Shown: piece by piece, positions 27,789 through 63,806 of the stretch
How positions within the stretch are numbered: position 1 is the stretch's first letter
Layout of the letters: each line of letters opens with the position of its first letter
Virus record (IMG/VR): IMGVR_UViG_3300020499_000002
Strand: one strand, 5' to 3'
Source of the DNA: an uncultured virus (IMG/VR IMGVR_UViG_3300020499_000002)
Taxonomy: Duplodnaviria > Heunggongvirae > Uroviricota > Caudoviricetes
Length of the DNA stretch: 64,000 nucleotides
The notes under the pieces: model-generated
Seen by the model: the letters and a program-made list of their open reading frames with translations, nothing else
Told to the model about the DNA's origin: nothing
The model's database searches: none
Made by a program: the position numbers and the translations under genes

Positions 27789-30700
27789 ATGGATCCAAAA
27801 ATAGAAAAAACGATATCTAATTTCGTTCAGAATCAGTTTCCGCAATTCTATCAAGAGGAAGGCGAAAATTTTATTCTGTTTGTCAAAACATATTTTGAAT
27901 GGATGGAAACTGAAGGTCAGCCTATCAGAGAGGCTAGACAATTATTTGAATATAGAGATATTGATACAACTATTGAAAGATTTTTAGAATATTTTCAGAA
28001 AAAATATTTATACGGAATACCATTCAACATTATTGCCAATAAAAGATTTTTGTTAAAACATATACTTAATGTATATCGTTCTAAAGGTACAATACAAGGT
28101 TATAAACTATTATTCAGATTGATATATAATGAAGACGTAGACGTTTATCTGCCCGGTAAAGATGTTCTTAGGGTATCTGATGGTAAATGGGTGGAACCAA
28201 AATATTTGGAATTATCTTGGAGTCCAATTTTAGATTCGTTAATTGGTAAAACAATATATGGAGTATCTTCTGGAACTTCGGCTGTAGTTGAACGAATTGT
28301 AAAAGAACGTTTTAACAAAGACGAAATATATGTAATGTATATTAATGATGTTGGTCCCAAAGGCGGAGATTTCATCGTTTCTGAAAAAATTGTTGATAAC
28401 CAATTCAAATCTAATTCTGAATTGGTTAGTTTATCGCCTACAGTTTTGGGTTCTTTGGACAGACTTGATGTTTTCAATAGTGGTAACTCGTTTAATGTTG
28501 GCGACGTTCTTAAAATTGCATACAAAGATTTAGATACAAATGAAATAGATTCATTTGGCGATCAAGGTTTGATTGTAGTTACTTCACTATTTCGTGGATT
28601 CGGATCGCTCAACTTTAACATCAGAAATGGTGGTTTCGGGTTTACTGCTAATGCTGCTATTTTCTTATATAAAAACATACTAGATCAAACTGGTCAGGGC
28701 GCAAGTTTTAATATTAAAATAGCCGACGTTAGAAGATTAACATATAATACAGATCTATTTTTAGATTTTATGGATCTTCAATTAGACGAAATATACGGTT
28801 TCAGTAAATATCAAAACGCAAATTCGGCTTCTACACTGGACGAATGTTTTTCCTACGATACAAATGATTTTGGTAGAATAGCGGCGCTAACAAACGTTTT
28901 AACTGGTAATGGTTATATTGCTCCTGCTAATGTTTTTATTCGTTCTACTTATAGATCTAAAAATATTCCGGGAAGATTGACTTGGTACAACAGTAACGAT
29001 TTTATTAACGCTTACTCCACGGACGTCTATGTTAATACCTCATTTATCAGTAATAACGTTATTCTTATAGCAAACGCTGTTAAACATTATGATACAAACG
29101 CATACGTAGATTATATTGTACCAGCAGGAAATACTGCTATTAATGGTTTGACTGCTAATACAAGATATTATGTGAAAACTACTAATACGTTAGGTATTAC
29201 ATTAAGCGCCACTCAAGGCGGAACGACTTTAAATATTAATACAGCTGTCACTAGTAATACCACTGAAAGACATTCTTTCATAACAAAGGCTCTTACAAAA
29301 AGTTTTTTTGCTAACACTACCTCTGTAAATAATGCAAGCTATTCTATCCTAGTAACAGATGCTAATACTTATTTTTACCCAGACGATTATGTATATTATC
29401 TTGTCCCTGCAGGCAATACTGGGTTACTTGGTATTACACCAAATAGTTTTTATTATGTAGAAAGCTCGAACTCTACAGCTATAACATTGAGCGATACATT
29501 CACAGGCAATTCAGATCCAATTGAAATTGCAACAGATGTTATATTGGCTGGAGAAACGCATTATCTATTAAATGACACTACTAGAAATATTTACCCATAC
29601 GTAAACGGTTATTCTACACAAGTTTATGCTAATACATTTTCAATTAATAATACTAGTTATGCAATCAAAATAGCAAACGCTGATATATATTTTTCTGTTA
29701 ATGATAGAGTTTATTATGACGTTCCTGTTGGTAATACCGCCATAGCTAATTTAAGAGCAAATTCTGTTGTTTACATCAAAACTTCTAATTCGTCAGCAAT
29801 TACTCTGAGTAACACTGCTGGCGGTCCAGTAATGCAAATTTACACCAGTTCTTCTGGAGCAGCAGAAACACATACTATTAAAACTGCTAAATTTAGTAAA
29901 TATTTCGCAAATGATGACGTTATATATCTACAATCAGACAGCACAAATGCTAATACTTTGGAATTGGCAGTTATTAGAAATATAATAAGCGATGTATCGA
30001 TACAGCTGTACGGGTTCACTAACAGCAGCTCTACGAGTAATTCTCTTTATGGAAGAGCTGTTGTTATTATGCCTTCTCAGTTTGATGTTTCAGAGTTTAC
30101 AGGCAGAAATAAAATTACAGGTAATTCTGATATTTTCAGTATTCTTTCTTATACATATAGTACCTTAGATTATACCAATTTAGCTAATATTATGAAAAGG
30201 CTAGATGGTACCATAAATGGTATAAATGATAATATCGAAGCTCTAAATTCTAGTGGTAATAATATTGTAGAAAATGTTTCAGCGATCAATTCTGGTAAGG
30301 CTTATGTTGAAGGCGAATCAGTACGAGCTTATCGTTATGGTATTTTGCAAGTACCCACTGTTGCAAAAGGTGGAACAGGTTATGTCAATGGTGACACAAT
30401 CATATTCAGCGGCGGTGTTACTGAAACACCTGCCAGAGGCTCAATTCTGACAAATTCTCAAGGCAATGTAGTTTCTGTTAATACAGCAGAAGGAGCTTGG
30501 TATGGCGGTGTAGGTTATAATTCACTACCAGAAATAAGTATTAGATCAGCGAATAATTTAGCAAATGGCGCCGTTTTAACCACAAATTATATCCCATTTG
30601 ATACAGCCAATGAAATCAGAGGATTAGTGAGAAAAAGCGGAATAGGTAGAGGATTGGGTTATTGGGCGACTACTGATGGACTTTTGAATTCGGATAAGGT

Positions 30701-31109
30701 CATTCAAGATAGTTATTATTATCAGGATTATTCTTATGAATTGAGAACTGCACTTAGTCTAGAAACATACAAAGACGTATTTTACTCTACTTTTCACACA
30801 GCAGGTTCGGCTCTGTTTGGTAAATATGAATTACAACCTTTTGTGATGGCAAGTAACATAGAGTTAAATATCGATACTCTCGCTAATACGGCTTGGCCGC
30901 TTTGGCTAACTTGTGATATCGCAGACCCAAGAATTAGAGCGGACGTGTATCTTGAAGAACTCGCCAACGGGTATCCGCTCCCTGGCGTTATACTTACTGT
31001 AGACCAATTCACATTTTCTAATAATTATTTTGGATGTGATATAAATACAGTATACGCTGACAGCACAGAAATAACTTCTGACAGATTCTCAGAAGATTTA
31101 CCAACATAA
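27789..31109 (+). CDS. 7: baseplate wedge initiator gp7 with large insertions
   Basis: QFP.FY.....F..FVK.YFEWME...YRSKGT; C-terminal IQDSYYYQDYSYE...H.AG..LFG. Confidence 0.9.
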   Translation: MDPKIEKTISNFVQNQFPQFYQEEGENFILFVKTYFEWMETEGQPIREARQLFEYRDIDTTIERFLEYFQKKYLYGIPFNIIANKRFLLKHILNVYRSKGTIQGYKLLFRLIYNEDVDVYLPGKDVLRVSDGKWVEPKYLELSWSPILDSLIGKTIYGVSSGTSAVVERIVKERFNKDEIYVMYINDVGPKGGDFIVSEKIVDNQFKSNSELVSLSPTVLGSLDRLDVFNSGNSFNVGDVLKIAYKDLDTNEIDSFGDQGLIVVTSLFRGFGSLNFNIRNGGFGFTANAAIFLYKNILDQTGQGASFNIKIADVRRLTYNTDLFLDFMDLQLDEIYGFSKYQNANSASTLDECFSYDTNDFGRIAALTNVLTGNGYIAPANVFIRSTYRSKNIPGRLTWYNSNDFINAYSTDVYVNTSFISNNVILIANAVKHYDTNAYVDYIVPAGNTAINGLTANTRYYVKTTNTLGITLSATQGGTTLNINTAVTSNTTERHSFITKALTKSFFANTTSVNNASYSILVTDANTYFYPDDYVYYLVPAGNTGLLGITPNSFYYVESSNSTAITLSDTFTGNSDPIEIATDVILAGETHYLLNDTTRNIYPYVNGYSTQVYANTFSINNTSYAIKIANADIYFSVNDRVYYDVPVGNTAIANLRANSVVYIKTSNSSAITLSNTAGGPVMQIYTSSSGAAETHTIKTAKFSKYFANDDVIYLQSDSTNANTLELAVIRNIISDVSIQLYGFTNSSSTSNSLYGRAVVIMPSQFDVSEFTGRNKITGNSDIFSILSYTYSTLDYTNLANIMKRLDGTINGINDNIEALNSSGNNIVENVSAINSGKAYVEGESVRAYRYGILQVPTVAKGGTGYVNGDTIIFSGGVTETPARGSILTNSQGNVVSVNTAEGAWYGGVGYNSLPEISIRSANNLANGAVLTTNYIPFDTANEIRGLVRKSGIGRGLGYWATTDGLLNSDKVIQDSYYYQDYSYELRTALSLETYKDVFYSTFHTAGSALFGKYELQPFVMASNIELNIDTLANTAWPLWLTCDIADPRIRADVYLEELANGYPLPGVILTVDQFTFSNNYFGCDINTVYADSTEITSDRFSEDLPT

Positions 31110-31130: not shown

Positions 31131-31715
31131 TTGGCAAGACAAGTAGTAAACGTCGGAAACGACCCAAATGATGGAACTGGAACTCCTCTTAGAGATGCCA
31201 TGGTTATCATTAATGATAATTTTTTGGAGCTTTATACTAATCCGGTTGTGAATACTTCAATAACAGTCGGCAATTCTTCAGTAAACACTGTTGTGAACTC
31301 TACATCTATAGTTTTCGGTAATAACTCTTCTGTCATTAGGATTGGAAACACTTCAATCAATGCTATCGCCAACAGTTCAGGATTCTTTACAGGGAATGGA
31401 ACTGTCACAGCAAATTCTATCAGTGTTTCCTCTAATACTATAAATGTTGGATCGTTCACAGCTGCAGCTAATGGGTACACATTTTTACCAAACGGTTTCA
31501 AATTAAATTATGGTTATGTATTTTGTAATTCTAGCGTAGGCAATGCTACTTTTTCGTCAGCGTTTGCGACAGCGTGTTATGTAGTTACGGCCACTTCTAA
31601 TACAGCAGCAGTTACATATGAACCTGCTGTAGTCGGAACTAATACTACCGTGGCTATTATCAGAACATCAAATACAACAGCCGTAAACGTTTATTATATG
31701 GCTATAGGAAGATAA
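31131..31715 (+). CDS. short fibre / gp9-gp10-like N-terminal protein
   Basis: RQVVNVG..PNDGTG.PLRDA...INDNF.ELY; C-terminal LPNG....YG...YYMAIG fibre-tip pattern. Confidence 0.8.
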   Translation: MARQVVNVGNDPNDGTGTPLRDAMVIINDNFLELYTNPVVNTSITVGNSSVNTVVNSTSIVFGNNSSVIRIGNTSINAIANSSGFFTGNGTVTANSISVSSNTINVGSFTAAANGYTFLPNGFKLNYGYVFCNSSVGNATFSSAFATACYVVTATSNTAAVTYEPAVVGTNTTVAIIRTSNTTAVNVYYMAIGR

Positions 31716-31724: not shown

Positions 31725-33260
31725 ATGACAGGAGTATTACAACCTTCTTATAGAAAGGCTCTAATTGATGAAATGTTTGATAACATAAGATCAAACACTT
31801 CATATTATTATGCAGTCGCCTCTAATCCTATATTAAGAGTTGGGCCCCTTCCTAATACTACCCCAGACGACTATAATACTAAATTTGAAACTGATTGGTT
31901 AATGTTATTTGGTAAAAAATTATCAATAACCAATTTTGCTCCATTAGTTGATAATAATCTATGGGCGAATGGTTTTGTCTACAAAATGTATGATAATAAC
32001 GATGTAGATTTATATTCAAACAATAAATTTTATGTTATAAGTCCTCCAGAATTTGATGGTGGAACTTATAACATCTTTAAATGTATGGACAATGCCAATA
32101 ATTCTCCTTCTACAGTAAAACCAGCAATAGTACAAGTAACTTCTTTTCAAACTGATGATGGTTATGTTTGGAGATATGTAACTTCTATTCCATATAGACT
32201 TTATAAAATGTTTGCTACAGACACATATGCACCAGTTTATGCAAACAGTGTTACTACTTTATATGCTAATCAATACTGCGGCGTCGAAAAGGTAGTCATT
32301 ACTAATACTGGCTCTGGATACGTAGGATACCATGATGGAACTATCTTATCAGCTAACAGCACAGTTATTCAGGTAGGCAATACAGCAAGTAATGCTTCGG
32401 GTATCTATAACAACAGCGCAATTTATATCTATAATGTCACTTTAACAACTTCTCAAATATTTCAAATATCAGATTATGTATCTAACAGCGTTGGAAAGTG
32501 GGTGCTTTTGAATGGAGAGGCTAATACTACAAATATTATCCCAGAAGCTACTCAATATAAAATTTCACCAAGAGTTGTTTTTACTACAGATGGCGGTACA
32601 CAGCCAGTAGCATATAGCGTTGTTAATACTACTACTAATTCTATTAGTAATATAGTTATGCTTGATATCGGCGCTGATATATCATGGGCAAACGTTTCTA
32701 TAGTATCCGCTGTTGGTTCTGGTGCGAATGTATATGCTATAGTTCCGCCACCAGGCGGTCACGGTTCTGACCCAGTCTCAGAATTGAATGTAAAGGCATT
32801 GGGCGTTAATTTTCATTTTGCCAACAGCGAAGGTAATACAGTATCTGACGATTTATTATATAACAAAATTGGTATAATTAAAAACCCTTACGGTCTACAT
32901 GCTAATGGCGCTAAAAGTAATACCGCTTACATATCTACAACGTTTAGTCAAACATTAGACGCTAATTTATTGAATCCAGTATTATTTACTGTTGGTGATA
33001 GAATCTATGGAAATACTAGCAATGCTTATGGTATAGTGGCCTTTGCTAATACATCTAGGATAAAAGTAGTAGGCGATAAAACTTTTGTTAATGGAGAATT
33101 TGTATTTTCTAGCGATTCAGTTTTGAGTTCAGAAATTGATATTATTGATAACGGTAGTATTTACGTTAAAGACGTAAAACCATTATATGTCCAAGATATA
33201 AATAACGTAAATAGGTCTAATTCTCAAACAGAATCTTTTAAGCTGATCATTGAGATTTAA
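31725..33260 (+). CDS. 8: baseplate wedge gp8
   Basis: FYV......N.FKC.DN.N...STVKP...T.DGY.WRY; PPGGHGSDP..EL; R...Q.E.FKLIIE. Confidence 0.9.
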   Translation: MTGVLQPSYRKALIDEMFDNIRSNTSYYYAVASNPILRVGPLPNTTPDDYNTKFETDWLMLFGKKLSITNFAPLVDNNLWANGFVYKMYDNNDVDLYSNNKFYVISPPEFDGGTYNIFKCMDNANNSPSTVKPAIVQVTSFQTDDGYVWRYVTSIPYRLYKMFATDTYAPVYANSVTTLYANQYCGVEKVVITNTGSGYVGYHDGTILSANSTVIQVGNTASNASGIYNNSAIYIYNVTLTTSQIFQISDYVSNSVGKWVLLNGEANTTNIIPEATQYKISPRVVFTTDGGTQPVAYSVVNTTTNSISNIVMLDIGADISWANVSIVSAVGSGANVYAIVPPPGGHGSDPVSELNVKALGVNFHFANSEGNTVSDDLLYNKIGIIKNPYGLHANGAKSNTAYISTTFSQTLDANLLNPVLFTVGDRIYGNTSNAYGIVAFANTSRIKVVGDKTFVNGEFVFSSDSVLSSEIDIIDNGSIYVKDVKPLYVQDINNVNRSNSQTESFKLIIEI

Positions 33261-33275: not shown

Positions 33276-36200
33276 ATGTCATTAGATATAGATTTAAACG
33301 TTGCTCCTTACTACGATGACTATAACGAAAATAAAAATTATCATAGAATTCTTTTTAGACCATCAGTAGCGGTGCAAGCAAGAGAATTAACTCAGCTTCA
33401 AACAATTCTTCAAAAACAGATAGAGCGTTTTGGAAATTGGGCATTTAGGAGCGGAGATATAGTATCTGGTTGTAATATCTCTGATATTCCATCTCTTTCA
33501 TATGTAAGACTTATGGATTTCGCTTCTAATGGATCAGCTAATACTGCAACATTAGATGTCACAGAATATATTAATGCAGTCGCTACTAGCGTAACTAGTA
33601 ATCTAAGAGCAAAAGTTTTATATGCTAATGCAGGTTTTAGTACCAATTATCCTGATACAAATATTTTATATTTAAGATATCTTAATACTGGAACTGGAGG
33701 GGAAAAAGTATTCTCTAATGGTGAACTCCTTACCTTTGTTCAAGTTTCAGAAGCAGGAAATACAGATTTAGCTAATGTATATTCTTGGGCTAATACTCTA
33801 GCTAATACTGTAACAACTGGAAATGCTCATGGTGTTACTGTTTCTGAAGGTATCATTTTTATCAATGGCAATTTCGTAAGAGTAGAGAACGAAACTTTCG
33901 GATTAGTTAATAATTTTGGAACTTATGCCGGCAATAACGTCATAGGGTTCGAATTAGTTGAACAAATTATTACTGAAACACAAGACAACACTTTGTTGGA
34001 TAATGCTCTAGGTTATTCTAACGAAAATGCGCCAGGAGCTCATCGTCTAAAAGTTTCGCCAATCATACTTTCTTTGACCGAAGAACAAGCGGCGCTAACC
34101 GAGAAATTCAATCCGATTGCTTCATACAATTATGGCACTCTGGTAATCAAATACTCAGAATCTTCTAATTTGTATTCTATAGTAGGCGATGTTATTGCTA
34201 AAAGAACTTATGAAGAATCTGGGAATTATGTAGTAAATCCTTTTGCTGTTGATACAGTAACAAATGTTTTGGACAACAACGTTGATATAGCGCCTTCTTC
34301 TGCTAATAATGTTCTTGCTAGAGTAAGCGCAGGAATTGGTTATTCTCAGGGTAAAAGAGTTGAGCTTCTTAAAACAGCATATATCGATATGCGTCGTGGC
34401 GTAGATACACAGACATTAAGTTCTCAACAGATCAGTTTCAATTATGGCAGTTATTTTATTTTAAATGAAGTATCAGGAACTTTTGAATTTAATAAATCAC
34501 AAACTGTTACTTTGTATGACAAACCACAACAGTCAGTAACTAATAGAACTTATGCTGGCACATCGCCTACGGGTAATAATATCGGAACAGCAACAGTAAA
34601 ATGTTATAGTTTTAATTCTGGTGTACCAGGAAGCGCATCTGCAACTTATTTGCTTCATATATTCAACATATCTCTAAATGCAGGGTATAACAGTACTCAA
34701 ATAAAATCTGTTTATTATAATGGTTCTAAAAAAGGAGTTGCTGATGTTTATTCTGTAGGATTGTTAGAAGATCAGTTCAAAAGACAACTTTATTCTTTTG
34801 GTTTTTCTGGAATAAAAAACATTAGAGATCAAAGTAATAACGTCCAGACTAATTATATTTACAGAAATAAAGCCTCTGGAACTATGACTACCACAGGTAA
34901 TGCGACTATAACATTAACTTATTCTGCGCCTGGAGGCACAGATATACTTCCTTATGGTATAGGTATACTATCAGATGCTACTGCTTCTGAGTTTACTGTG
35001 GTTGCTACTGCTAATGTTGATTCTGCGGTATTAACAGGCACAGTCAGCGTAAATACAACATCAGTTAACGTTGTAGGAACTTCAACAACGTTCACCAATA
35101 GATTTTATGTTGGAGACAACATAAAGGTAGGCACTGATATAAGAACAGTTATTTCAGTGTCAAATGCTACGTTTTTGACTGTCGATGCTCCATTTGGTGC
35201 GACTAACGCTTCTGCGAATTATTACAAATCTTACATTAGTGGTAAAAACATTCCAATTTCTAGAACCTTCAGTTCTGGTCCTTCAAGTTTTATACAGGTA
35301 ACAAACAGTACATCATTTACTATAAGTTCAGGTCAAATTCCTAGTTCATCTTTGAGTGTTGACATATTTTATAATACCCAAAGAAATGTTGCATTACCCG
35401 CTAAAAAGGTAATCAAGAGAGATGTGTTTGTTAAAATTAACACAGCTTCTAATCCAAAAGGACCATGGTGTTTAGGATTTAGCGATATTTTTAAAGTAAA
35501 TAAAATTTACGGATCTTCAAATGGAACTTATACAACAAACGGTGTAGATTTAACTACTAGCTTTACTTATGATACAGGTCAAAGAGACACTCATTACGAT
35601 TTGGGTTATTTGTATTCTAAGGGCTCATATAGTTCATCATCCTTCCCTAATATTTTAGTTCAACTTGACTATTTTGCTGTAAATACTGCACCAGGAGTAG
35701 GCTTCTTTTCAGTAGAATCTTATCCCGTCGATGATGCAAATACTGCAAACACTAATGCGATACAGACCAAAGATATTCCACTTTATGTTGACGAAAATGG
35801 CGCTAAGTTACCTCTTAGAGATTTCATAGATTTCAGAACTCCTTGTGCAATCACAGCTAACGACACAGGTACAGTTGATACATCTAATTCTACTCAAGTT
35901 ACTACAGCTATAAGTTATGCATCAGTCAATCCTGCTTCGACTTTGACTTTAAGCACCGGCGATGCTACATCAGGTTTGAACGTCCCTGCTTATGGTAAAA
36001 ATCTAGAAGCGGATTATACTAGATACCTACCTAGAAAAGATTTAATCCTAATAACTCCAGATAATGTTCTTAAAGTTAAAGAAGGCGTTTCTAGCCAGAG
36101 TCCACAAACTCCTCTATGGCCAGATAATGCTATGGTTCTTTCTGTATTGAATATACCACCATATCCTTCTCTTTCTTCAGATCAACTTGATTCGTTTTAT

Positions 36201-51292: not shown

Positions 51293-51946
51293 ATGACTGA
51301 TTACGTTCTTGTAGAAAACAAACAAATAATTCATCTTGGTCCTATGGGTTGGAAGCCAAGAATGTTTCAATCTGAATTGAACGATCTTGAAGTAGATTTT
51401 ACTGTTCCTACAGCAGAACCCGGATACATTCAGATCAATGAAAACTTTGAGATTATGCCTGTGAGTTTAGATACTCCAACGCATAATCCATTGTTTGAAG
51501 AACTGGCAGGTCCATTTTGGACGTATGAAAATAATACTGCTATTGGTCATTACACTGTGCATGACGGTAATATAGATTCTATCAAAGGCAATTTAAAAAA
51601 CATCGTCGCTGCTCTAAGATATAATAAAGAACAAACTCCGTTCAAATACACCATTCAAGGAACAGAAATTACTGTTGATGCGTCAAGAGAAAACAGAAAT
51701 ATCTTTGTTCAGAAATATCAATTTATGACTGACGCTGAAACTGTTGATTGGAAGTTTCCAGAAACATGGCTCACACTAACTAAGGCAGAACTCGGCGAAT
51801 TAGTTGTGGCTGGTGCTACTCACATTCAGACACAATTTGATTGGGAAAAAGGATATGTTGATAGTATTGAAAGTTCTACAACTATTGACAATCTAAGAAA
51901 CATTTATAATGAATTGATACCTCCGCCTAATTACTCAGGGGTGTAG
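51293..51946 (+). CDS. DUF4376-like tail-associated protein
   Basis: VAALRY.KE...WKF...W..LT..EL......H.Q..FDWE. Confidence 0.65.
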   Translation: MTDYVLVENKQIIHLGPMGWKPRMFQSELNDLEVDFTVPTAEPGYIQINENFEIMPVSLDTPTHNPLFEELAGPFWTYENNTAIGHYTVHDGNIDSIKGNLKNIVAALRYNKEQTPFKYTIQGTEITVDASRENRNIFVQKYQFMTDAETVDWKFPETWLTLTKAELGELVVAGATHIQTQFDWEKGYVDSIESSTTIDNLRNIYNELIPPPNYSGV

Positions 51947-51948
51947 TA

Positions 51949-54403: not shown

Positions 54404-55831
54404 ATGAAATCAGATGAAATTTGGCAGTCAATCACTGCTGGTCTTCCAAAAACACCATCACCATCAGAAACTATTCCGTTACCTGAAATTTTAAGGGTTA
54501 TGGAATATTGCTTAGACAATCGTGTAGAAAAATTTAACGCTGCTATTGACCTATTAGATTGTATTGCACCGCTAAGAAATGATATTGAGTTTCTTAACTT
54601 TAAAGCAATGGTCGAGTTCGTTGCAAAAAAGTATAATCGTTGCTTACAAACTTCTGAACAAATTTTAAATCACTATAAAGACACCAACACATACTTTAAC
54701 GCCGGGCGTGCAGCGTATAAAGCCAATCAACTAGAGAAATCATTAGAATATCTCACCAAATCATTAGAACTTGATCCAGAAAATGTTTCTGTTCTTCTTG
54801 ATTACGCTGTCACCATTTGTACCATGGGAGACTTTGATGGTTCATTGGATATTATCAACAACATAGATAAATCAAAATATTCCGAAAGAGACCAGAAAGT
54901 AACTGACTTCAATAAAGGTTGGCATACTATTCGGAAAGGCGACTTCAAGAAAGGTATGGCTCTACTTAATATTGGTCGTGATCTTAAACTATTAGGAACA
55001 CATTCTGATAAGTATGATCAACCAGAATGGGATGGCACTACATATGAAGGTAAAACTATTCTTATTGTCGGCGAAGGTGGTATTGGTGACGAAGTAATCA
55101 ATGCTCGTTTCTCTAAGATCATCAAAGAACGTGGTATGAAATGTATCATGTCTACGGTACATAACAATCAGTCTATGTTATCTTCCGTTAGAATGATTGA
55201 CAAGGTGATTGACAATAAAGACATTCGTAAAGAAAAGTGGGACTACTGGGTTCCTTGTATGTCTCTGCCATATAAGTTAGGCATAGACTCTAACGAAATA
55301 CCAAATGAACCATATCTATTTGCTAAACCAGGATATGTTGTTAAGTGGAAGAACAGAATCAAATCTGATAAGAAACTTAACATTGGTATTCGTTGGATGG
55401 GTAATCCATTATACGAACTAGAATTAGCCAGAACAATTCCTGTAGAATACTTTGACGAACTATCTAAGTATGACGTTCAACTTTGGTCGTTACAAAAAGA
55501 TGACGGTGTTCCGTTTAGATTGCCAACTAATACTATAGACTTGGCATCAGGTTTTGAGAATTGGGATGATACGATGGGAGCCATTATGAATATGGATCTT
55601 GTCATTACATCCTGCACCTCTGTTGCTCATGTTGCCGCTGCTCTTGGAAAACCTACATGGGTTGTAATGCCCTTACTTCCATATTATACTTGGGCAGACA
55701 TGAAAAAAGAATCCTACTGGTATAAGAATGTATCTTGTTACCGTCAAAGAGTATGGCAAGATTGGTCTGCTCCATTTGATGAATTGAAGAAAGATTTAGA
55801 ACATGAAATTAAACTTAGCAATTCCAATTAG
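54404..55831 (+). CDS. TPR-containing GT-B glycosyltransferase (GT9/heptosyltransferase-like C-terminus)
   Basis: TPR helices; EGGIGDE; DTMGAI..MDLVITSCTSVAHVAAALGKPTW. Confidence 0.88.
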   Translation: MKSDEIWQSITAGLPKTPSPSETIPLPEILRVMEYCLDNRVEKFNAAIDLLDCIAPLRNDIEFLNFKAMVEFVAKKYNRCLQTSEQILNHYKDTNTYFNAGRAAYKANQLEKSLEYLTKSLELDPENVSVLLDYAVTICTMGDFDGSLDIINNIDKSKYSERDQKVTDFNKGWHTIRKGDFKKGMALLNIGRDLKLLGTHSDKYDQPEWDGTTYEGKTILIVGEGGIGDEVINARFSKIIKERGMKCIMSTVHNNQSMLSSVRMIDKVIDNKDIRKEKWDYWVPCMSLPYKLGIDSNEIPNEPYLFAKPGYVVKWKNRIKSDKKLNIGIRWMGNPLYELELARTIPVEYFDELSKYDVQLWSLQKDDGVPFRLPTNTIDLASGFENWDDTMGAIMNMDLVITSCTSVAHVAAALGKPTWVVMPLLPYYTWADMKKESYWYKNVSCYRQRVWQDWSAPFDELKKDLEHEIKLSNSN

Positions 55832-56561
55832 AACTTCTGGTGTATATAACTTTTGGAACTCTGAAAGATATATCAGTAAAGATAAGGGTCTAATCACTAG
55901 AACCTGTATTAAAAGTCTTGCCGCTTCTATCGCTGCATCTCAAGTAAGGCCAATCATATCCATTCACGATGATAACTCTGACGATTATACTCTTAACTCT
56001 ATACACGAATCATTTCATGAATATGGATTAAAGTATGAGTTATATCACACAGAACCACAACAGAACTTTATATCGCAGTATGAATGGACTATAGAACAAG
56101 ATTTTGATTTTGTTTATAACATAGAAGATGATTACCTACATTATCCTGCTGCCATACATGATATGGTTGATATGATTGATTGTATGAATCGGCTAAAACC
56201 TTATGACTATGCCATGTATCCATTCAACAATCCACACAGATACCAAAGTTTCGCTGCTTTGTATCCCTCATATATTGTAAAAGGAACCTACCAGTATTGG
56301 CGTTCGCTATTGCATTCAACTCATACCTTTATGTGTTCTAAGAAGTGTTTTGTGGATAATATAGATATAATGAAAGACCAAGCATACACTTGGCATGTTG
56401 ATGCTGCCGTTGAGGATGAAAGCATCAATAAAGTTTGGAGAAACCAGGAAACAATATTATTCTGTCCAATGAACTCTCTGGCGTTTCATATGACAGACGT
56501 TACACAAAAGCCTGACTTTGATGATTGGCAGACATTATGGAGTTACTATGAAACACGGTAA
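55803..56561 (+). CDS. GT-A fold glycosyltransferase-like protein
   Basis: IHDDNS, VYNIEDDYLH DxD-type motif. Confidence 0.75.
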   Translation: MKLNLAIPIRTSGVYNFWNSERYISKDKGLITRTCIKSLAASIAASQVRPIISIHDDNSDDYTLNSIHESFHEYGLKYELYHTEPQQNFISQYEWTIEQDFDFVYNIEDDYLHYPAAIHDMVDMIDCMNRLKPYDYAMYPFNNPHRYQSFAALYPSYIVKGTYQYWRSLLHSTHTFMCSKKCFVDNIDIMKDQAYTWHVDAAVEDESINKVWRNQETILFCPMNSLAFHMTDVTQKPDFDDWQTLWSYYETR

Positions 56562-57387
56562 GACAGCGGTATATACTATTCTCAAGAATGAAAAGCAGTA
56601 TATCGAAAAGTGGTTATATTACGCCGATCCTTTTGATTACAAGGTTTTACTTGACACCGGATCAGCTGATGGTTCATGGGAAATGTTGCAAGAGGCAGCA
56701 ACAAAAGATCCAAAACTAATCATTGAACAAAAAACATTTACGCCTTGGCATTTCTCTAATGCTCGCAATCATAACATGACAATGATTCCGAATGATGTTA
56801 TTTGGTGTCTTTCGCCAGACTTAGACGAATACTATTCTATCAATACACATGATCAAATCGAAAAGGTTATTGATCAGAATCCTAATGCGACTTCTATTAC
56901 TTCTGATAGGTTGGATATCTACTCACATCATGTAAAGGTCGGACCACCATTTCTACTACCTACTAACAAAATTCATCTCAAGGATTATTACAACTGGAAA
57001 CAGCCGGTGTATGAATACATCAACTATATTGGGCCAGAAGGTTATGATGTTGAAGTTTATGATCCCTTGATTTGCCTTATTCACGATCAGGATTTTCGTA
57101 AGAAAGAACGATCAGAATTATACATCAAACTTATGGAAGACGAATACGCTGTCAATCCCACAAACACTTGGGTTCTATGGTTTCTAACATATCACTACTA
57201 TAAGTCAAGGCAAATAGACAAATACATTCCCGCTGCTTGCGATTATATTACTTATCATGACAACATGTATGATAATAACTATAAGGGACTTTTGAAGGAT
57301 CTAACCAACTTATATTTCTTTGATAAAGATGTTACACCAGAGCAGAAAGAACAGATCAAATCAGTAATCAAGGGCAAGTCAATATGA
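56548..57387 (+). CDS. GT2-like glycosyltransferase
   Basis: VYTI.KNE, DTGSADGS, FSNARN, SPDLDE; start moved to 56548 (GGAG RBS). Confidence 0.85.
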   Translation: MKHGKTAVYTILKNEKQYIEKWLYYADPFDYKVLLDTGSADGSWEMLQEAATKDPKLIIEQKTFTPWHFSNARNHNMTMIPNDVIWCLSPDLDEYYSINTHDQIEKVIDQNPNATSITSDRLDIYSHHVKVGPPFLLPTNKIHLKDYYNWKQPVYEYINYIGPEGYDVEVYDPLICLIHDQDFRKKERSELYIKLMEDEYAVNPTNTWVLWFLTYHYYKSRQIDKYIPAACDYITYHDNMYDNNYKGLLKDLTNLYFFDKDVTPEQKEQIKSVIKGKSI

Positions 57388-58052
57388 ATAATTTTAGATG
57401 GATAATTGAAAACCCTAACGATACTATTCAAAGTTCTTTAAAAGCAGGTCATTTTCACGAACAACGTGAAATGGAGATTATGAAAGAGTATTGTCCAAAG
57501 GGAGCGCATATACTGGACATTGGCGCTAATGTTGGTAATCATTCAGTGTATTTTAGTAAGTTCTTTGATGCTGAAATAATCTATGCTATCGAACCATTGC
57601 CAGTGGCATACAAGATGTTGTTAGCCAATCTGTGTTTAAACTACTGTCATAATGTTAATGTTGATTATGTCGGCGTAGCATTAGGTCATATGGAAACTCA
57701 AGGATTTCCGATGGAGATTTATCCTGACAATCTAGGATCAACCAGATTGTTTCATGAAGATAAAACCGATTTACCATTTCAGAAGTTTGATCCAGTCAAT
57801 ATCATTCCAGGTGATGTTCTATTTGCTGATAAAAGAGTTGATTTTATCAAGATGGATATTGAAGGAATGGAGATGGTTGCTCTTATGGGATTAAAAGAAA
57901 CCATCGCCAGAAATAGACCTAATATGTTTGTTGAAGTCAGTATTGAAAACGTAGAAGATTTTCACCAGTGGATGGACGAAAATAACTATAAAGTTGTTTG
58001 GAATGAGATAGAACCTAGAATTTTTGCTTCATATATTATCATTCCTCAGTAA
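57384..58052 (+). CDS. FkbM-family methyltransferase
   Basis: LDIGANVGNHS, IEP, FIKMDIEGME. Confidence 0.93.
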   Translation: MNNFRWIIENPNDTIQSSLKAGHFHEQREMEIMKEYCPKGAHILDIGANVGNHSVYFSKFFDAEIIYAIEPLPVAYKMLLANLCLNYCHNVNVDYVGVALGHMETQGFPMEIYPDNLGSTRLFHEDKTDLPFQKFDPVNIIPGDVLFADKRVDFIKMDIEGMEMVALMGLKETIARNRPNMFVEVSIENVEDFHQWMDENNYKVVWNEIEPRIFASYIIIPQ

Positions 58053-58829
58053 ATATTCTTCTATGGAAAGAAACTTATGATCTATAAAATGATTCAATGA
58101 GCATGTGAAGTATTGATACTTATTCTCCAGATGTTTTGGAAAGGGAATGCACTCAATTGTAGCGCATTCTTTTTCAGCAACTAATTGAGCCACCCTTTCA
58201 AACGACCTAGCAACTCCTGTGCCGAGATCGTAAATACCAGAAGGTTTATCATAAAACATACAATCAATAACATCTTCTACCCAAATAAAGTCTCGCATAC
58301 ATGCGTTAGATTTTTCGAATAGTTTAATTGTTCCTGTTTCTCTTGCTTGTTTGGTGAATTTATAAACTGGACTTGCTTGGTCGCCTTTGTGGCTTTCGTG
58401 TTTGCCAAAAACATTAAAGAATCTATAACCTTGAATTTTAGAAAACTTATCTATATTATCTTCTACAAACCTATCAATAGTTGCTTTTGATAGAGCGTAA
58501 TAATTCAAAGGGTTTATTTCTCTTCTATAATTTGTATTACCATACACTGCAGCAGACGAAGCGTATTTTACAGGAATTTGATAGTCTATTGCATTATTAA
58601 GTAGTTTGATAGTATAGTCTATGTTATACTTGTGTATTTTATTAATATCAGTTTCAGTAGTGTCTGTAATAGCTCCAAGATGCCAAATTTGCTTTATTTC
58701 TTCCCAATTTATACCCTCGTATAAATCGTCAAAACAATATTGTTTTTCTGAATAATAGATTCCTCCTTGTGGAAATCTTTGAAGTAAATGTTGACCAATA
58801 AATCCGTCAGTCCCTGTTATTAAGATCAT
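58029..58829 (-). CDS. hldD: ADP-L-glycero-D-manno-heptose 6-epimerase-like
   Basis: TGTDGFIG, HLGAITDTTE, YASSAAVYG, Y..SK, RFFNVFG..E.HKG.QAS, YQ.FT. Confidence 0.9.
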   Translation of the reverse strand: MILITGTDGFIGQHLLQRFPQGGIYYSEKQYCFDDLYEGINWEEIKQIWHLGAITDTTETDINKIHKYNIDYTIKLLNNAIDYQIPVKYASSAAVYGNTNYRREINPLNYYALSKATIDRFVEDNIDKFSKIQGYRFFNVFGKHESHKGDQASPVYKFTKQARETGTIKLFEKSNACMRDFIWVEDVIDCMFYDKPSGIYDLGTGVARSFERVAQLVAEKECATIECIPFPKHLENKYQYFTCSLNHFIDHKFLSIEEYLLRNDNI

Positions 58830-59118
58830 TGAAAAAATCCTCTGAATTTATCGCCTTGTCGTCAATCCAAACATCATATGATGGTTTATTGAAATTAAGG
58901 GAAGTATATTTAACGCCCCATTTTTTAAACTGTTCAATAGTCAAATCGCGCCAATCTTTGCCCGAACTCATTCCTCTTGCAGTCCAGTAATGTATTTCAT
59001 AACCAACATCATACAAACTGTTAAGAGTCTCAATTCTTTTTTTGATAGGCAATGAATTAGCGTAATCGCTATTTTTTGAAATACAAATAGTATTATCAAT
59101 ATCTACCAAATATTTCAT
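58807..59118 (-). CDS. short HAD-family phosphatase
   Basis: VDIDNTIC, WTARG, KP.YD..IDDKA. Confidence 0.85.
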   Translation of the reverse strand: MKYLVDIDNTICISKNSDYANSLPIKKRIETLNSLYDVGYEIHYWTARGMSSGKDWRDLTIEQFKKWGVKYTSLNFNKPSYDVWIDDKAINSEDFFNDLNNRD

Positions 59119-59468
59119 TTTTGACTGTCTCCTGGCATTATTCTGAAATCATCGTTATCATAATGTGTAGTTGAGATTTCGAATACAACAGAATCATCTT
59201 CAAGAGCTTCTAATTGATGTGGTTCTCCAGGTTCGTTTGTCCAAGTATCGCCTTCTTTTAAAATATTGTGTTGAATCGAAGCATCTTTAGTTTCTATCCA
59301 ATGTATTTTAAATTTTCCTTTTTGAACATAAAACGTTTCATGTTTTTTTAAATGAAAATGCATAGATCCTTTAGAGCCAGCTTTATCATATACTAATAAC
59401 TTACCACAATATTTGTCGTTGTTTTCAATTATGAGTTCTCTACCCCATCCTTTATTGACAATCTGCAT
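59115..59468 (-). CDS. cupin (sugar-phosphate isomerase-like)
   Basis: KGWG.E...YCGK.L...SMHFH..K.ETF...H....E.ST. Confidence 0.85.
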   Translation of the reverse strand: MQIVNKGWGRELIIENNDKYCGKLLVYDKAGSKGSMHFHLKKHETFYVQKGKFKIHWIETKDASIQHNILKEGDTWTNEPGEPHQLEALEDDSVVFEISTTHYDNDDFRIMPGDSQK

Positions 59469-60606
59469 TTAAATGCTCCAAAGTTTTTGTAGTAGAGTAG
59501 CCCTTAACAAATGGTATTATTACGACCTTTGTTAAATCGTTACCTACAACTTCTTCAGGTTTATAGTCTCCGCCCTTTGTAATTATATCTGGCTTCAATT
59601 TTTTTATTAATTCATAAGGAGTATCTTCGTTAAAAATAATAACTTCATCGACACAATCTAGAGCTTCTAGAACTGCTTTTCTGTCTTTCTGATTGTTTAT
59701 AGGTCGTTGTTCGCCTTTTAATCTTTTGATTGATTCGTCTGAATTCAAACCCACTATCAATTTATATCCAAGTTTTCTAGACTCTTTTAGATATTCTATG
59801 TGGCCTCTATGTAGAATATCAAAACAACCATTAGTGAATACTACAGAGTTTTTAGCAATATTTTCTTTTGATAAAACATATGTTCCGAATTTAGTAACTG
59901 AAATACTGGCCAATCTCACAGCCTTTGAACAAGCATCATAAAGGTTGTTTCCGATACTAAGATAGTGAGTCATAGCTGCGATGAATACATCTCCTGCGCC
60001 AGTAACATCAGAAACTGGATGTTTGTCTGTTGATATTTCTCCTTCGAAATCGTCAGAGGAAATATATACTCCATTCTCTCCCTTTGTGACTACAATAGAT
60101 CCTATGTTGAATAATTTTCGAAGCTGAAAAGGCGTATTACCGAATCCATATTCTTCAAGTTCTTTTTGGTTCAATTTTATTATACTTGAATTTTTATAAT
60201 TGTCAATAGGTTTTTTGGGATCTACTATAACTTTAGAACCTTTTTTAATAAAATTATCAACTATCAATTGGCTGTGATGTAAGAATCCTTTGTTATAATC
60301 AGAAAGAATCACATAATCCGGATTAACTGGAAAATCTATATCTTGATTTGGGATATATTCTTCTTCGTCAGAACGAAACATTATATGATTATCGCATACG
60401 AATCTGGTCTTTTTGGAATTAAAAGAAGCAAAAATCTCAGTATCCGAACCAAGAGCTTGGAGATTCTCGTAGACATTTCCTGCACCGCCTGAACGAAATT
60501 CAGTAGTTTTAGATTTGAAAACAGGTATGGGAGACTCAGGCGATATACGGTCTACGGTGCCATATATATAAATATCTTCTATGTAATCACCAATCACTGC
60601 GATCAT
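59452..60606 (-). CDS. hldE: bifunctional heptose 7-phosphate kinase / heptose 1-phosphate adenylyltransferase
   Basis: RISPE.P.PV, GGAGNV, LSDY.KG, DVTGAGD; FTNGCFDILHRGH, KGGDY, STT; start moved to ATG 60606. Confidence 0.95.
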   Translation of the reverse strand: MIAVIGDYIEDIYIYGTVDRISPESPIPVFKSKTTEFRSGGAGNVYENLQALGSDTEIFASFNSKKTRFVCDNHIMFRSDEEEYIPNQDIDFPVNPDYVILSDYNKGFLHHSQLIVDNFIKKGSKVIVDPKKPIDNYKNSSIIKLNQKELEEYGFGNTPFQLRKLFNIGSIVVTKGENGVYISSDDFEGEISTDKHPVSDVTGAGDVFIAAMTHYLSIGNNLYDACSKAVRLASISVTKFGTYVLSKENIAKNSVVFTNGCFDILHRGHIEYLKESRKLGYKLIVGLNSDESIKRLKGEQRPINNQKDRKAVLEALDCVDEVIIFNEDTPYELIKKLKPDIITKGGDYKPEEVVGNDLTKVVIIPFVKGYSTTKTLEHLNADCQ

Positions 60607-60668
60607 ATTAACTCTCTTTGTTATGCCTAAATATATTAAAAACAAAGCCAACAAGGGGATAGGGAACC

Positions 60669-63600
60669 ATGGCAGATAAAGATTTCGTCGTAAAAAATGG
60701 TCTAGTTACCGGAACTAATAACGTCACAATAGGTAACTCAGTATATATAGTTGCCAATGGCAACGTCGGCGTTGGCACTGATACCCCTAATGCTCTGGTG
60801 ACTATTGTAGGTCCAACCACTAACGCAACTAATTTAAATATTAATGGTTTGACAGTAACTTATAATAGTAACACGTTTAATAATTCTTCCAATGTAGGCG
60901 GAGCTGCTATTGGTGGATATAATGCTAACGGTTTTGGCGTTTTAGGTAGATCTGGTCCTGGTATAGGCGTTATTGGTGTTGCTAATGTTGGTGGTGGATA
61001 TGGCGTTGGAGGTTACGCCCATTCAACGGCAGATTCTTTTTCGGTCGCAGGCTATTTTCTCAACCAAAGTAATGGTATTGGCGTTAGAGCAGCATCAGTT
61101 TCTGGTAGACCGTTCGTTGTTGCTAATGCCACAGTAGATATTATGACTGTGATTTCTAATGGTAATATTGGTATAGGAGATTCTTCTCCTGCAGTTAGAT
61201 TAGTTGTTAATGGATCAATCAATGCTACTAGTATAAACGCTGCTTCTTATACAGTTGGAACATCATTCACTGCTAATTCTACTCTAGTAAACGTTGTTTC
61301 TTTATCAGTTTCTACTAACACATCTACCTTCGGTACAGCAGCCCGAATAGTTGCTAACGGCAACATCGGTATAGGAACTGCTACCCCTAATTCTCTAGTA
61401 ACTATTGTAGGTCCGGCTGCTAATGCAACCAATTTAGATATTAATGGTTTGACAGTAACTTATAATAGTAACACATTCACTAATTCGGTAAATACTGGTG
61501 CTGCAGCTATTGGTGGATATAATGCTAACGGTTTTGGTGTTCTTGGTAAATCAGGGGCTGGTATAGGCGTTATTGGTGTTGCTAATGTTGGTGGCGGTCA
61601 AGGAGTTGCAGGTTACGCCCATTCAACGGCAGATTCTTCTTCAATTGCAGGATATTTCTTTAATCAAAGTAATGGTACTGGAGTCTATGCTAGATCTTTT
61701 GGCGGTAGACCATTCGTTGCTGCTAGTAATACTGCAGAATATATGAGCATTTCAGCTAACGGTAATATTGGTATAGGAGATTCAACCCCTGCAGTTAGAT
61801 TAGTTGTTAATGGATCAATCAATGCTACTAGTATAAACGCAGTTTCTCATACAGTTGGAACATCATTCACTGCCAATTCTACTCTAGTAAACGCTGTTTC
61901 GCTAGTAGTGTCAACTAACACTTCTACTTTTGGCACAGCAGCCCGAATAGTTGCCAATGGTAACATTGGCGTTGGTACTGCTACTCCTGGTGAAAAAATT
62001 ACTGTCATTAGTACCGATAGTACAGGGGCTGCGGGATTTCAAACTTTATCTGGAACTGCGACAGCTCTGGGAGCTGCAGCTAATGCTGGCGTTGGAGCTT
62101 ATATCCAATCTAGAACTGGTAGGCCATTAGTTGTTGCTAATAATACTACAGAATTTTTCCAAGTTGTTGCTAATGGCAACGTCGGCGTTGGCACTGCTAC
62201 CCCTAATTCTCTAGTAACTATTGTAGGCCCAACCGCTAATGCTACTAACCTAGATATTAATGGTCTAACAGTTACCTATAATAGTAACACATTCACCAGT
62301 TCTTCTAATGTAGGCGGAGCTGCTATTGGTGGGTATAACGCCAATGGTTTTGCTGTTCTTGGTAGATCTAGCGCTGGTATAGGTATTGTTGGAGTTGCTA
62401 ACTCTGGTAGCGGTATTGCTATTGCAGGTTATGCTCATGCAACAACTAATTCTTCTGCGCATGCAGGTTTTTTCTTGAATTCAAGTAATGGAATTGGCGT
62501 TAGAGCGGCGGTCTCAACAGGTGGTAGACCTTTCGTTGCTTCTAATGCTACTGTAGAATTTATGTCTGTTGAAGCTAATGGCAACATTGGTTTCGGCAAT
62601 TCATCGCCTAGATCTAAATTACATATAACCAGAAGTTCGGGCGCCAGCGCCGCTGGCGAAATATATTTGGATGAAGGTTTATATTGGTCCATGTTGAACA
62701 GTCGGTCGACCGTTGGCGCTTGGAATCCATTAGTACAAACTAATGATCATACTTTAATATATTCTGATGGTTCGGCTGATACTGGCGCTTTGGTCATTGG
62801 ACCATGGTCTTCTGATAACAAAGGTATGCGTATCGCTAGTAATGGTAGCATTGGTATTGGTACTGCTACTCCTGGCGAAAGAATTACTGTAATTAGCGCC
62901 GATGGTAGAGGAGCTGGATTTTTTCTATCCAATACAGGTAATGGTTTGAGTAGCAAAACTGAAAATGGTTTTGCTGGAATTATTGGTGTATCTAACTCTA
63001 GTTCATCATCTGTCGCTATTGCTGGTTACGCTAATACTGGATATGGTGGTTATTTTCAAACTTTCTTTGGGACGCAGACAGCTCTAGCAGCTGTAGCTAA
63101 TGCTGGAGTTGCAGTTTACGCTCAATCCGGAACTGGTAGACCATTAGTTGTTGCTAATAATACTGTAGAATTTATGTCTGTTCAAGCTAATGGCGCTGTT
63201 TTATTTGCTGGCACTCATCATAATATATCCAGTCTCGGTGGAGTTTTTAGGACTGGCGCTGGCGATTATGGTGTTAGAATTTATCCAGGTGGCGGTAGTG
63301 ATTCGAATACTGCTATATTACAATTCACAAACGCTGCTCAAAATACACAAACAGCCCAAATCGCAGTAAATTCTGCAGGTCTTTTTGTGGGTACTTCTGT
63401 TAGCACCTCTGTTTATTTTGTAGCCGGTGGTTCAGTAAAGGCCACATTAGATCCAAGTGGTAATTTCGTCGCCAATGGTAATATTACTGCATTTGGCGCG
63501 ACTTCCGACGAAAGATTGAAAGAAAATATTACACCATTTTCAAACACACTAGATAAAGTAAAAAGACTTCAAGGCGTTACTTATAATTGGAAAAAAGGAA

Positions 63601-63806
63601 CCGCTGAACGTGATTTTGCTGGTATCAATAATGATATTGGTTTGATTGCACAGAACGTCCAAGAAGTATTTCCAGATCTAGTTCGTGAAAGCGAAGACGG
63701 TTATCTTTCTTTGCGCGATAGAGGTTTGTTTGCAATTCTAATCGAAGCAATCAAAGAACAACAAAATCAAATTGATGAACTTAAAAAAATGTTGGAGAAT
63801 AAATAA
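60669..63806 (+). CDS. long tail fibre with S74 chaperone and internal duplications
   Basis: MADKDFVVKNGL; repeated GN.G.GT.TP; SDERLKENI...GLIAQ.V..VFP..V...LIEAIKE. Confidence 0.92.
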   Translation: MADKDFVVKNGLVTGTNNVTIGNSVYIVANGNVGVGTDTPNALVTIVGPTTNATNLNINGLTVTYNSNTFNNSSNVGGAAIGGYNANGFGVLGRSGPGIGVIGVANVGGGYGVGGYAHSTADSFSVAGYFLNQSNGIGVRAASVSGRPFVVANATVDIMTVISNGNIGIGDSSPAVRLVVNGSINATSINAASYTVGTSFTANSTLVNVVSLSVSTNTSTFGTAARIVANGNIGIGTATPNSLVTIVGPAANATNLDINGLTVTYNSNTFTNSVNTGAAAIGGYNANGFGVLGKSGAGIGVIGVANVGGGQGVAGYAHSTADSSSIAGYFFNQSNGTGVYARSFGGRPFVAASNTAEYMSISANGNIGIGDSTPAVRLVVNGSINATSINAVSHTVGTSFTANSTLVNAVSLVVSTNTSTFGTAARIVANGNIGVGTATPGEKITVISTDSTGAAGFQTLSGTATALGAAANAGVGAYIQSRTGRPLVVANNTTEFFQVVANGNVGVGTATPNSLVTIVGPTANATNLDINGLTVTYNSNTFTSSSNVGGAAIGGYNANGFAVLGRSSAGIGIVGVANSGSGIAIAGYAHATTNSSAHAGFFLNSSNGIGVRAAVSTGGRPFVASNATVEFMSVEANGNIGFGNSSPRSKLHITRSSGASAAGEIYLDEGLYWSMLNSRSTVGAWNPLVQTNDHTLIYSDGSADTGALVIGPWSSDNKGMRIASNGSIGIGTATPGERITVISADGRGAGFFLSNTGNGLSSKTENGFAGIIGVSNSSSSSVAIAGYANTGYGGYFQTFFGTQTALAAVANAGVAVYAQSGTGRPLVVANNTVEFMSVQANGAVLFAGTHHNISSLGGVFRTGAGDYGVRIYPGGGSDSNTAILQFTNAAQNTQTAQIAVNSAGLFVGTSVSTSVYFVAGGSVKATLDPSGNFVANGNITAFGATSDERLKENITPFSNTLDKVKRLQGVTYNWKKGTAERDFAGINNDIGLIAQNVQEVFPDLVRESEDGYLSLRDRGLFAILIEAIKEQQNQIDELKKMLENK
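60750..61950 (+). repeat. 600-bp tandem duplication inside fibre gene
   Basis: identical segments at 61161 and 61761, and at 60841 and 61441; third partial copy ~62165-62600. Confidence 0.9.

Follow-up and report, generated by a model that had tools for sequence, protein, structure and literature searches.

A lineage-wide Asn motif in the virion proteins of T4-like phages and the core glycosyltransferases that may modify it

We analyzed positions 27,789 to 63,806 of a 64,000-nucleotide stretch (the window) of DNA from an uncultured virus (IMG/VR IMGVR_UViG_3300020499_000002), which lies inside a 105.6-kb linear record, G000, that is 62% complete and belongs to a T4-like myophage. The outer proteins of this phage and of its relatives are enriched in the motif (Ala>Ser/Gly)-Asn-(Thr/Ser); this motif, and not the canonical N-glycosylation sequon N-X-S/T, marks the lineage, and it has the same distribution as a core pair of transferase genes, one encoding a glycosyltransferase of family GT4 (PF00534) and the other a GT-A-like protein. 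The reading that we favor, at about an even chance, is that the virion is glycosylated throughout at this atypical, chlorovirus-like Asn motif by the core GT4/GT-A pair. The original prediction, made from the letters of the window, was that a sugar cassette encoded among the fibre genes places an Asn-linked glycan on canonical sequons of the tail; glycosylation at an Asn motif is still the best reading, while the canonical sequon and the local cassette as agent both had to be given up.

Composition of the motif and the proteins that carry it

Observed motif counts were compared with those expected from shuffles of each protein, and also from local-block shuffles and after collapse of repeats. 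Most of the sequon counts first noticed by eye were borne out (features are on the + strand unless stated otherwise). The Asn/Ser/Thr-rich fibre protein of 1020 residues (40067..43129, recognized by its composition and repeat units), thought to hold ~65 sequons, has 67 among 125 Asn against 37.1 expected (z 6.2, or 6.1 with local-block shuffles), and after repeat collapse 43 of 89 Asn against 26.3 (p 1.5e-4). The gp9-like connector/fibre protein (194 residues, 31131..31715, PHROG 677) does have 12 of its 28 Asn in sequons (6.3 expected, p 0.01). The other fibres named as sequon-rich proved to be so, namely a 657-residue protein (43772..45745; 24 vs 15.4 expected) and two proteins with an S74 intramolecular chaperone domain (PF13884), of 475 residues (48700..50127; 24 vs 14.5) and 1045 residues (60669..63806; 30 vs 20.7), as is a 379-residue protein matching tail-fibre PHROGs (46309..47448; 18 vs 11.1). 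Sequon density had also been ascribed to gp7, gp8 and both halves of VrlC; this holds for the C-terminal part of VrlC (901 residues, 37138..39843, PHROG 358; 29 vs 18.0) and marginally for the gp8-like baseplate wedge protein (511 residues, 31725..33260, PHROG 438; 14 vs 9.0), and it does not hold for the gp7-like wedge protein (1106 residues, 27789..31109, PHROG 17744; 12 vs 17.3) or the N-terminal part of VrlC (1279 residues, 33276..37115, DUF4815 and PHROG 358; 21 vs 22.1). The hub (21289), gp26, the enzymes and the RCC1 proteins were all at chance, as had been stated. With repeats collapsed, the nine flagged proteins together retain 189 sequons among 636 Asn against 138.6 expected, and the excess survives collapsing in six fibre/VrlC proteins.

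The control in which Ser/Thr follows Asn directly nonetheless spoke against the canonical sequon: in the nine flagged proteins pooled, Ser/Thr is as enriched at Asn+1 (239 vs 165.5) as at Asn+2 (233 vs 165.1), and in gp7 the excess is found only at Asn+1 (36 vs 18.9). Among 121 gp8 orthologues the mean observed/expected ratio is 1.65 for N-S/T and 1.27 for N-X-S/T, several conserved Asn have Ser/Thr at +1 only, and covariation odds ratios, calculated with relatedness ignored, are 1.81 at +1 and 1.23 at +2. The strongest feature of the context is Ala at -1, with 164 occurrences against 74 expected in the G000 phage and 177 against 100 in four cultured phages that carry the GT4 gene (GT4+), and with no excess in 12 phages that lack it (GT4-). 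Thr at Asn+1 is likewise in excess in the cultured GT4+ phages (204 vs 142) and in the pmoC-like clade (1494 vs 1186), and the over-represented words are ANT, SNT, ANS and NST. Given the equal enrichment at the two positions and the strength of Ala at -1, the signal of this lineage is (Ala>Ser/Gly)-Asn-(Thr/Ser); the N-X-S/T excess is a by-product of it, because a second Ser/Thr often follows the motif.

Counted as [ASG]N[ST], the motif is enriched 3- to 5-fold in gp7 (20 vs 4.0 expected), the gp9-like protein (7 vs 2.0), gp8 (12 vs 2.2), the 40067 fibre (35 vs 11.8) and the sheath (13 vs 3.9), and about 2-fold in the C-terminal part of VrlC (9 vs 4.4) and the 43772, 46309 and 60669 fibres; the dipeptide AN is in excess in the 43772 (20 vs 6.7) and 60669 (24 vs 12.8) proteins. 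The signal is weak in the 48700 fibre and in the first half of VrlC, which has little or no excess (7 vs 5.7; AN[ST] 5 vs 1.6), and gp6, the hub, gp5, the tube, the neck proteins and the RCC1 proteins are at chance (3, 0 and 0 vs 1.2, 1.7 and 1.6 for the RCC1 genes at 50117, 51949 and 53185). In the capsid protein of the relative G009, four of five motif sites lie at residues 124–214, the fifth (DTGNTFA) being common to outgroups. By analogy with the architecture of T4, which we take to apply here, the motif-enriched proteins would be those that face outward.

Two of these proteins have further features of their own. Residues ~430–700 of gp7 comprise three copies of an inserted domain of ~100 residues, each rich in GNT, ANT, ANS and SNS. 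The 40067 fibre has two arrays of 23-residue repeats, beginning at ~41483 and ~42308, and is probably a homotrimer according to a model of residues 440–720, which scored 0.46 (best control 0.00); of 30 solved pairs, 21 reached the mark set on this scale, as against 0 of 23 single chains. The trimer runs had at least 65% of contacts in common and a partner pLDDT (predicted local distance difference test) of at least 49, values that may reflect likeness to solved fibres, and the model is confident only at residues 626–720, a part that excludes the 23-residue array and gives no side-chain exposure.

Core transferases and the motif across lineages

The G000 phage belongs to the lineage of Cr30, phiM12, DLP6 and RHph_I1_18. 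In its relatives a GT4 gene lies beside rnh together with genes resembling those for HddA, transaldolase, GmhB, GmhA, domain II of RfaE and a sugar O-methyltransferase, the family scores of the heptose genes all being under the curated cut-offs. G000 ends before this region; the overlapping contig G036, which matches the left end of G000 (~9.6 kb; 97.97% over 5315 bases and 99.27% over 4264 bases), carries both the cluster of methyltransferase, nucleotidyltransferase, GmhA, GmhB, transaldolase, GT4 and HddA genes (G036:C1:~30970-36170; L186:6798-11999) and the separate GT-A gene (G036:C1:49093-49962; L204:11090-11962). Our survey of GT4 neighborhoods covered 57 loci, 35 of them with enough flanking sequence, and each heptose gene was present at 31–33 of these 35 and the methyltransferase at 24; in Cr30 the GT4 gene lies next to genes annotated as heptose 7-phosphate kinase and phosphoheptose isomerase. 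The pathway to GDP-D-glycero-alpha-D-manno-heptose consists of GmhA, HddA, GmhB and HddC. The HddA-, GmhB- and GmhA-like genes around the core GT4 resemble it; unlike that pathway, the core cluster is phage-borne, has a transaldolase of its own and has a nucleotidyltransferase resembling domain II of RfaE in place of HddC.

The GT4 gene matched 20 of 50,697 GenBank phage records (DLP6, Cr30, the phiM12 group, RHph_I1_18, Ochrobactrum phage OC and two pelagiphage podoviruses, with a few further records matching weakly), and its Atlas clusters are 94–99% viral. A profile search found it in 15 of 30 genomes, i.e., all nine relatives that reach the locus, five named clade phages and one weak match, and in none of 14 named outgroup phages nor in G000; the same profile had no match to a PDB sequence at E 0.001. 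Cellular genomes gave eight matches, mostly on phage-like contigs in metagenome-assembled genomes (MAGs), and the two of these carriers that were tested (G041 and G042) are of the same clade and have the motif. The GT-A-like protein of 290 residues, which has only a weak match to Anp1, gave strong matches in the same 14 clade genomes, of the 29 searched, and weak ones in two others. Both genes are conserved, being present in every clade genome that extends to the loci; no complete genome of the clade without GT4 turned up, although no search aimed at one was made. The MAGs G041 (contig C15, L323) and G042 (L320) are titled Legionella sp. or Gammaproteobacteria, and their T4-like clade contigs (172 kb and 86 kb) were probably binned in.

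The motif separates the lineages in the same way. For gp8 and VrlC taken together, 13 GT4+ genomes have a median observed/expected ratio of 2.74 for [ASG]N[ST] and 3.94 for AN[ST], and 12 GT4- genomes have 0.95 and 0.83, respectively, whereas N-X-S/T does not separate the two groups (1.14 vs 1.05, p 0.16). In the sheath, where the genome with a weak GT4 hit was counted as negative, [ASG]N[ST] stands at 3.04 in 14 GT4+ genomes and 0.49 in 15 others (N-X-S/T 1.07 vs 0.75), and in gp8 by itself, with B23 dropped as having no gp8 match, at 2.78 in 14 GT4+ and 0.71 in 11 GT4- genomes (N-X-S/T 1.11 vs 1.20). The Asp controls D[ST] and AD are not enriched, and the motif is found across genomes of 35–56% guanine plus cytosine.

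The in-window cassette and the competing explanations

The sugar enzymes that had been read from the fibre region are largely as described. The gene at 54404..55831 encodes an enzyme whose structure model (pLDDT 95.6, from a 106-row alignment; the prediction from its single sequence reached only 34 and was set aside) has an N-terminal TPR part and a catalytic part with a GT9-like, heptosyltransferase fold, although sequence searches of PDB retrieved TPR proteins only. With VIA-align, GT9 ranked first: 3tov (Z 18.0, root-mean-square deviation (rmsd) 3.0 over 246 residues), WaaF (1psw; Z 17.3, rmsd 3.3, 244 aligned) and TibC (4rap; Z 15.8, rmsd 3.4, 249 aligned), compared with Z 10.9 and rmsd 9.8 for XcOGT; in the Foldseek ranking OGT/SPY came close to the top owing to the combination of TPR and GT-B, at rmsd 10–20. 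HMW1C/ApNGT chains were absent among the 50 VIA-align matches listed, which excludes nothing. Downstream (55803..58052) lie a GT2-family enzyme (56548), an FkbM methyltransferase (57384) and a 252-residue protein (55803), earlier taken for a GT-A enzyme, that has no match in Pfam, PHROG or NCBIfam. These are followed on the - strand (58029..60654) by an HldE-like kinase/nucleotidyltransferase (NF008454, E 3.6e-88), a cupin, a HAD phosphatase and an HldD-like epimerase (TIGR02197, E 2.4e-61), the HldE and HldD matches both being below curated cut-offs. Upstream, at 50117..54375, are the three RCC1 beta-propeller genes (PF00415) and a DUF4376 gene (51293).

This cassette does not explain the motif, since sisters that lack it keep their fibre sequons: in G005 and G007 the sequence runs unbroken from VrlC to the neck genes with no cassette in between, and the orthologues of the 40067 fibre in these two phages have 80 and 81 sequons of 155 Asn against 45.6 expected. 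Searches of relatives for the 54404 enzyme, many of the records being fragments, gave 1 of 38 and 0 of 5, and the enzyme is missing from the complete relatives G031 (98%) and G037 (100%); tblastn of the cassette against the fetched stretches of 19 relatives identified only a small nucleotidyltransferase domain, in four of them. What the enzyme travels with is RCC1: at 46 distinct loci among 80 surveyed, RCC1 genes are nearby in 43, HldE in five and HldD in seven, and the 252-residue protein, GT2 and FkbM in 16, six and ten, respectively. Judged by these loci, the cassette is an RCC1-linked accessory module separate from the motif, and the RCC1 propellers are likely its partners. In RCC1 repeats at these loci, Asn accounts for 196 of the 540 residues counted at the position before [RK]-[ST]-[ST]-P (ten commonest residues), so the repeats have no fixed sequon; as 54404 resembles TibC, its activity may be O-heptosylation of Ser, and the cassette probably decorates the propellers in the manner of TibC. 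The cultured Synechococcus phage BUCT-ZZ01 (L027:6131-9996) has an RCC1-type gene followed by a TPR-GT9 gene, without the core GT4.

We therefore regard it as very improbable, and largely refuted, that the TPR-GT9 and HldE/HldD cassette N-heptosylates canonical N-X-S/T on the fibres. Such a role would fit the excess that survives repeat collapse, the fold of the enzyme, the first Asn of the 23-residue repeat being N-X-S/T in 16 of 16 distinct units, and the finding of no N-P-S/T among 15 N-P; against it stand the equal excess in sisters, the absences from G031 and G037, the company of RCC1 rather than HldE, and the failure of N-X-S/T to separate lineages. HMW1C/ApNGT enzymes (GT41) are soluble, use a nucleotide-sugar donor, act on Asn-rich beta-helical substrates and need N-X-S/T. 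The first three traits would be shared by the system considered here; however, selection for N-X-S/T is not seen (+1 equals +2, gp7 is depleted, lineages do not differ), the fibres alone showing an excess, and sisters have the same fibre without the 54404 cassette, while the catalytic part of 54404 fits GT9 best and the core enzyme is a GT4. The 54404 enzyme resembles the autotransporter heptosyltransferases TibC/Aah, and WaaC/WaaF, in that it has a GT9 fold and neighbors HldE/HldD-like genes; TibC/Aah-like heptosyltransferases take heptose from ADP-heptose, have Ser as acceptor and form an iron-finger dodecamer. Unlike TibC/Aah, 54404 has a TPR N-terminus, a likely RCC1 propeller partner and no link to the Asn motif.

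We propose instead that gp7, gp8, the gp9-like protein, the C-terminal part of VrlC, the fibres, the sheath and the capsid insertions would have gained the motif within this lineage, and that the lineage-wide soluble GT4, with the co-distributed GT-A, would glycosylate it in the cytoplasm of the host, while the particles assemble or afterwards. The sugar could sit on the Asn amide, as at chlorovirus N-T-X-T sites, or on the neighboring Ser/Thr, and the donor in the G000 phage and Cr30 would probably be a nucleoside diphosphate (NDP)-heptose made by the transaldolase, GmhA, HddA, GmhB and nucleotidyltransferase genes, possibly O-methylated; the in-window TPR-GT9/HldE/HldD genes would act separately, on the RCC1 propellers. 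A close likeness is to chlorovirus PBCV-1, in which, according to the accessible text of PMC9614988, the virus-encoded cytoplasmic system places the N-glycans of Vp54 on NTGT, NTET and NTAT rather than N-X-S/T, three of four sites being N-T-X-T. In both systems Thr directly follows Asn in exposed particle proteins; in contrast, the chlorovirus is a eukaryotic virus with measured glycans, whereas here the sites are in a tailed phage, number in the hundreds over many proteins and are read from sequence. Phage-encoded glycosyltransferases also decorate capsid and tail proteins of mycobacteriophages (Freeman et al. 2023, as cited in the accessible parts of PMC12619734 and PMC10877033), though there reportedly at the C-termini of capsid and tail tube subunits, whereas in this T4-like proteobacterial phage the sites would be Asn motifs within the baseplate, fibre and sheath proteins.

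Several observations weigh against glycosylation by the core pair. Neither gp8 nor VrlC nor the sheath of phage OC has the motif, even though this phage encodes both transferases, and G022 is weak in gp8 plus VrlC (AN[ST] 1.39). In a capsid tree of 28 rows, a single branch (93/97, not starred) has all 13 GT4+ sequences on one side of it, so gene and motif go back to one origin, the p values cannot be taken as independent tests, and any clade-wide gene would correlate. An independent lineage with both GT4 and the motif was not found among 80 HTVC023P-like podovirus loci or the tested cellular-genome matches: the podovirus loci, which have a distant GT4 (~30% identity), gave AN[ST] 31 vs 29.5 in 59 proteins, although HTVC023P itself has a motif count of 14 vs 5.9 expected, unlike the loci pooled. 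Non-structural proteins do not avoid the motif to a significant degree (five-lineage p 0.18), with AN[ST] at 38 vs 59.7 in eight GT4+ sets and 30 vs 33.1 in eight GT4- sets and [ASG]N[ST] at 0.82 in both groups. Both Asn of the 23-residue repeat are invariant in all 16 distinct units whatever follows them, as in an Asn ladder, the second reading N-A-A in seven. Moreover, beta-rich neighbors of TPR-GT9 loci have AN[ST] in excess (113 vs 45 expected); GT4 is located among replication genes; HddA and GmhA were not found in the fetched DLP6 (about all of it), phiM12 and RHph_I1_18 (~70%) sequences, so the sugar may differ by branch; and a phage GT-B enzyme is known to place heptose on DNA, making heptosylated 5-hydroxymethylcytosine (10.1101/2023.12.21.572611, accessible part).

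Many of these points would suit a structural habit of the lineage, in which Asn, after Ala/Ser/Gly and before Ser/Thr, replaces Asp or Gly at the corners of beta-helices and in exposed beta-turns, a usage that the expansion of repeats and the shuffling of domains would have spread, with no sugar at these sites and the shared transferases acting elsewhere. Besides the invariant repeat Asn, the confinement to one clade, the case of OC and the lack of avoidance, this is consistent with a higher Asn/Asp ratio in the clade (median 1.57 vs 0.98) and with Asp being a frequent alternative at the motif Asn columns of gp8. However, wedge, sheath and capsid insertions, which all show the excess, are unrelated in fold, and their outgroup orthologues make the same turns without the motif; as neither wedge nor sheath is a beta-helix, a by-product of beta-helix turns would leave part of the pattern unexplained. 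The excess is also specific in sequence, with Ala at -1, Thr at +1 and flat Asp controls, and it spans that wide range of base composition; we see the habit as a possible explanation, if a lesser one. It seems unlikely that phage DNA or the host surface is what the core GT4/heptose cluster acts on, the virion motif being modified by a host enzyme or not at all. The place beside rnh and the published heptosylated base are in keeping with this, as is the usual interpretation of cyanophage sugar genes as modifiers of the host surface or DNA (PMC12801897, accessible part); yet the putative DNA-modification slot varies among close relatives (G009 and Cr30 have PF20691 there, G031 and G036 a different set) while GT4 stays, and phages with the motif infect hosts as different as Caulobacter, rhizobia and Stenotrophomonas, which makes one host enzyme unlikely.

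A fuller version of glycosylation by the core pair is more tentative and, to our mind, short of an even chance: that throughout the Cr30/phiM12/DLP6/pmoC-phage lineage the whole outer particle is glycosylated at (A/S/G)-N-(S/T) by a virus-specific GT4, which would be the first protein N-glycosyltransferase of the GT4 family and would give phages a counterpart to the atypical N-glycosylation of chloroviruses; the freshwater branch would use a methylated NDP-heptose that the phage makes itself, and a second, mobile TPR-GT9 module would separately heptosylate the RCC1 fibre tips. If this were true, Caulobacter Cr30 and Sinorhizobium phiM12 would be glycoprotein particles whose main modification has been missed, a large conserved viral GT4 family and an orphan heptose pathway would gain a substrate, and cytoplasmic protein glycosylation would have a new peptide signal; laboratories already keep phages on which the claim can be tested directly. 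Should the motif prove structural, the local cassette is still removed as its cause and the TPR-GT9 family is tied to RCC1 propellers. Full-text literature, from which subscription papers (among them the original phiM12 and Freeman 2023 texts) were mostly missing, yielded no Asn-motif or heptose glycosylation of T4-like virions; the main text of the pmoC-phage paper, as accessible (PMC7674155), has no mention of 'glycos', 'heptose' or 'sugar', and the accessible part of the DLP6 paper has nothing on glycosylation. CryoSeek glycofibrils, as described in the accessible part of 10.1101/2025.09.30.679562, are Ser-linked and not of phage, and were put aside as not relevant.

Genome context and host

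Family scans identified, in addition to the genes above, gp6. VrlC (33276-39843) is encoded by two genes, with differing split points, in the window phage, G009, G037, G039, DLP6 and Cr30, and by a single gene in G031, G038, G022, phiM12, RHph_I1_18 and OC. Outside the window, a stand-alone pmoC-type gene of G000 (G000:C1:17561-18322) passed both the AmoC and the PmoC/AmoC models of NCBIfam. Its match to PmoC chains (E 2e-155) is much stronger than that to AmoC chains (E 2e-65), which points to a methanotroph as the probable host; the gene's best PDB matches are presumably Methylocystis chains. The gene is 92% identical in G031, and by gene content both are pmoC-phages, i.e., large freshwater-type phages with a stand-alone pmoC (described in the accessible part of PMC7674155).

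The genes that follow a protein of 457–461 residues differ between close relatives (G036:C1:50500-56900 vs G009:C1:96700-98900): G009 and Cr30 have the TET-associated glycosyltransferase PF20691, and G036 and G031 a different set of several genes that we take, from their N-termini, to resemble amidotransferases or amidoligases. These variable slots look like interchangeable DNA-modification modules. A second gene that we take to be GT-B-like lies beside one presumably for a metallophosphoesterase-like protein at G000:C1:19228-20966, outside the window; it is also in G031 and was not seen in the G009 listing. Finally, phage OC encodes a protein of 329 residues (L378:5507-6496) that is 19% Asn, has 18 [ASG]N[ST] against 5.8 expected and may be a repeat protein.

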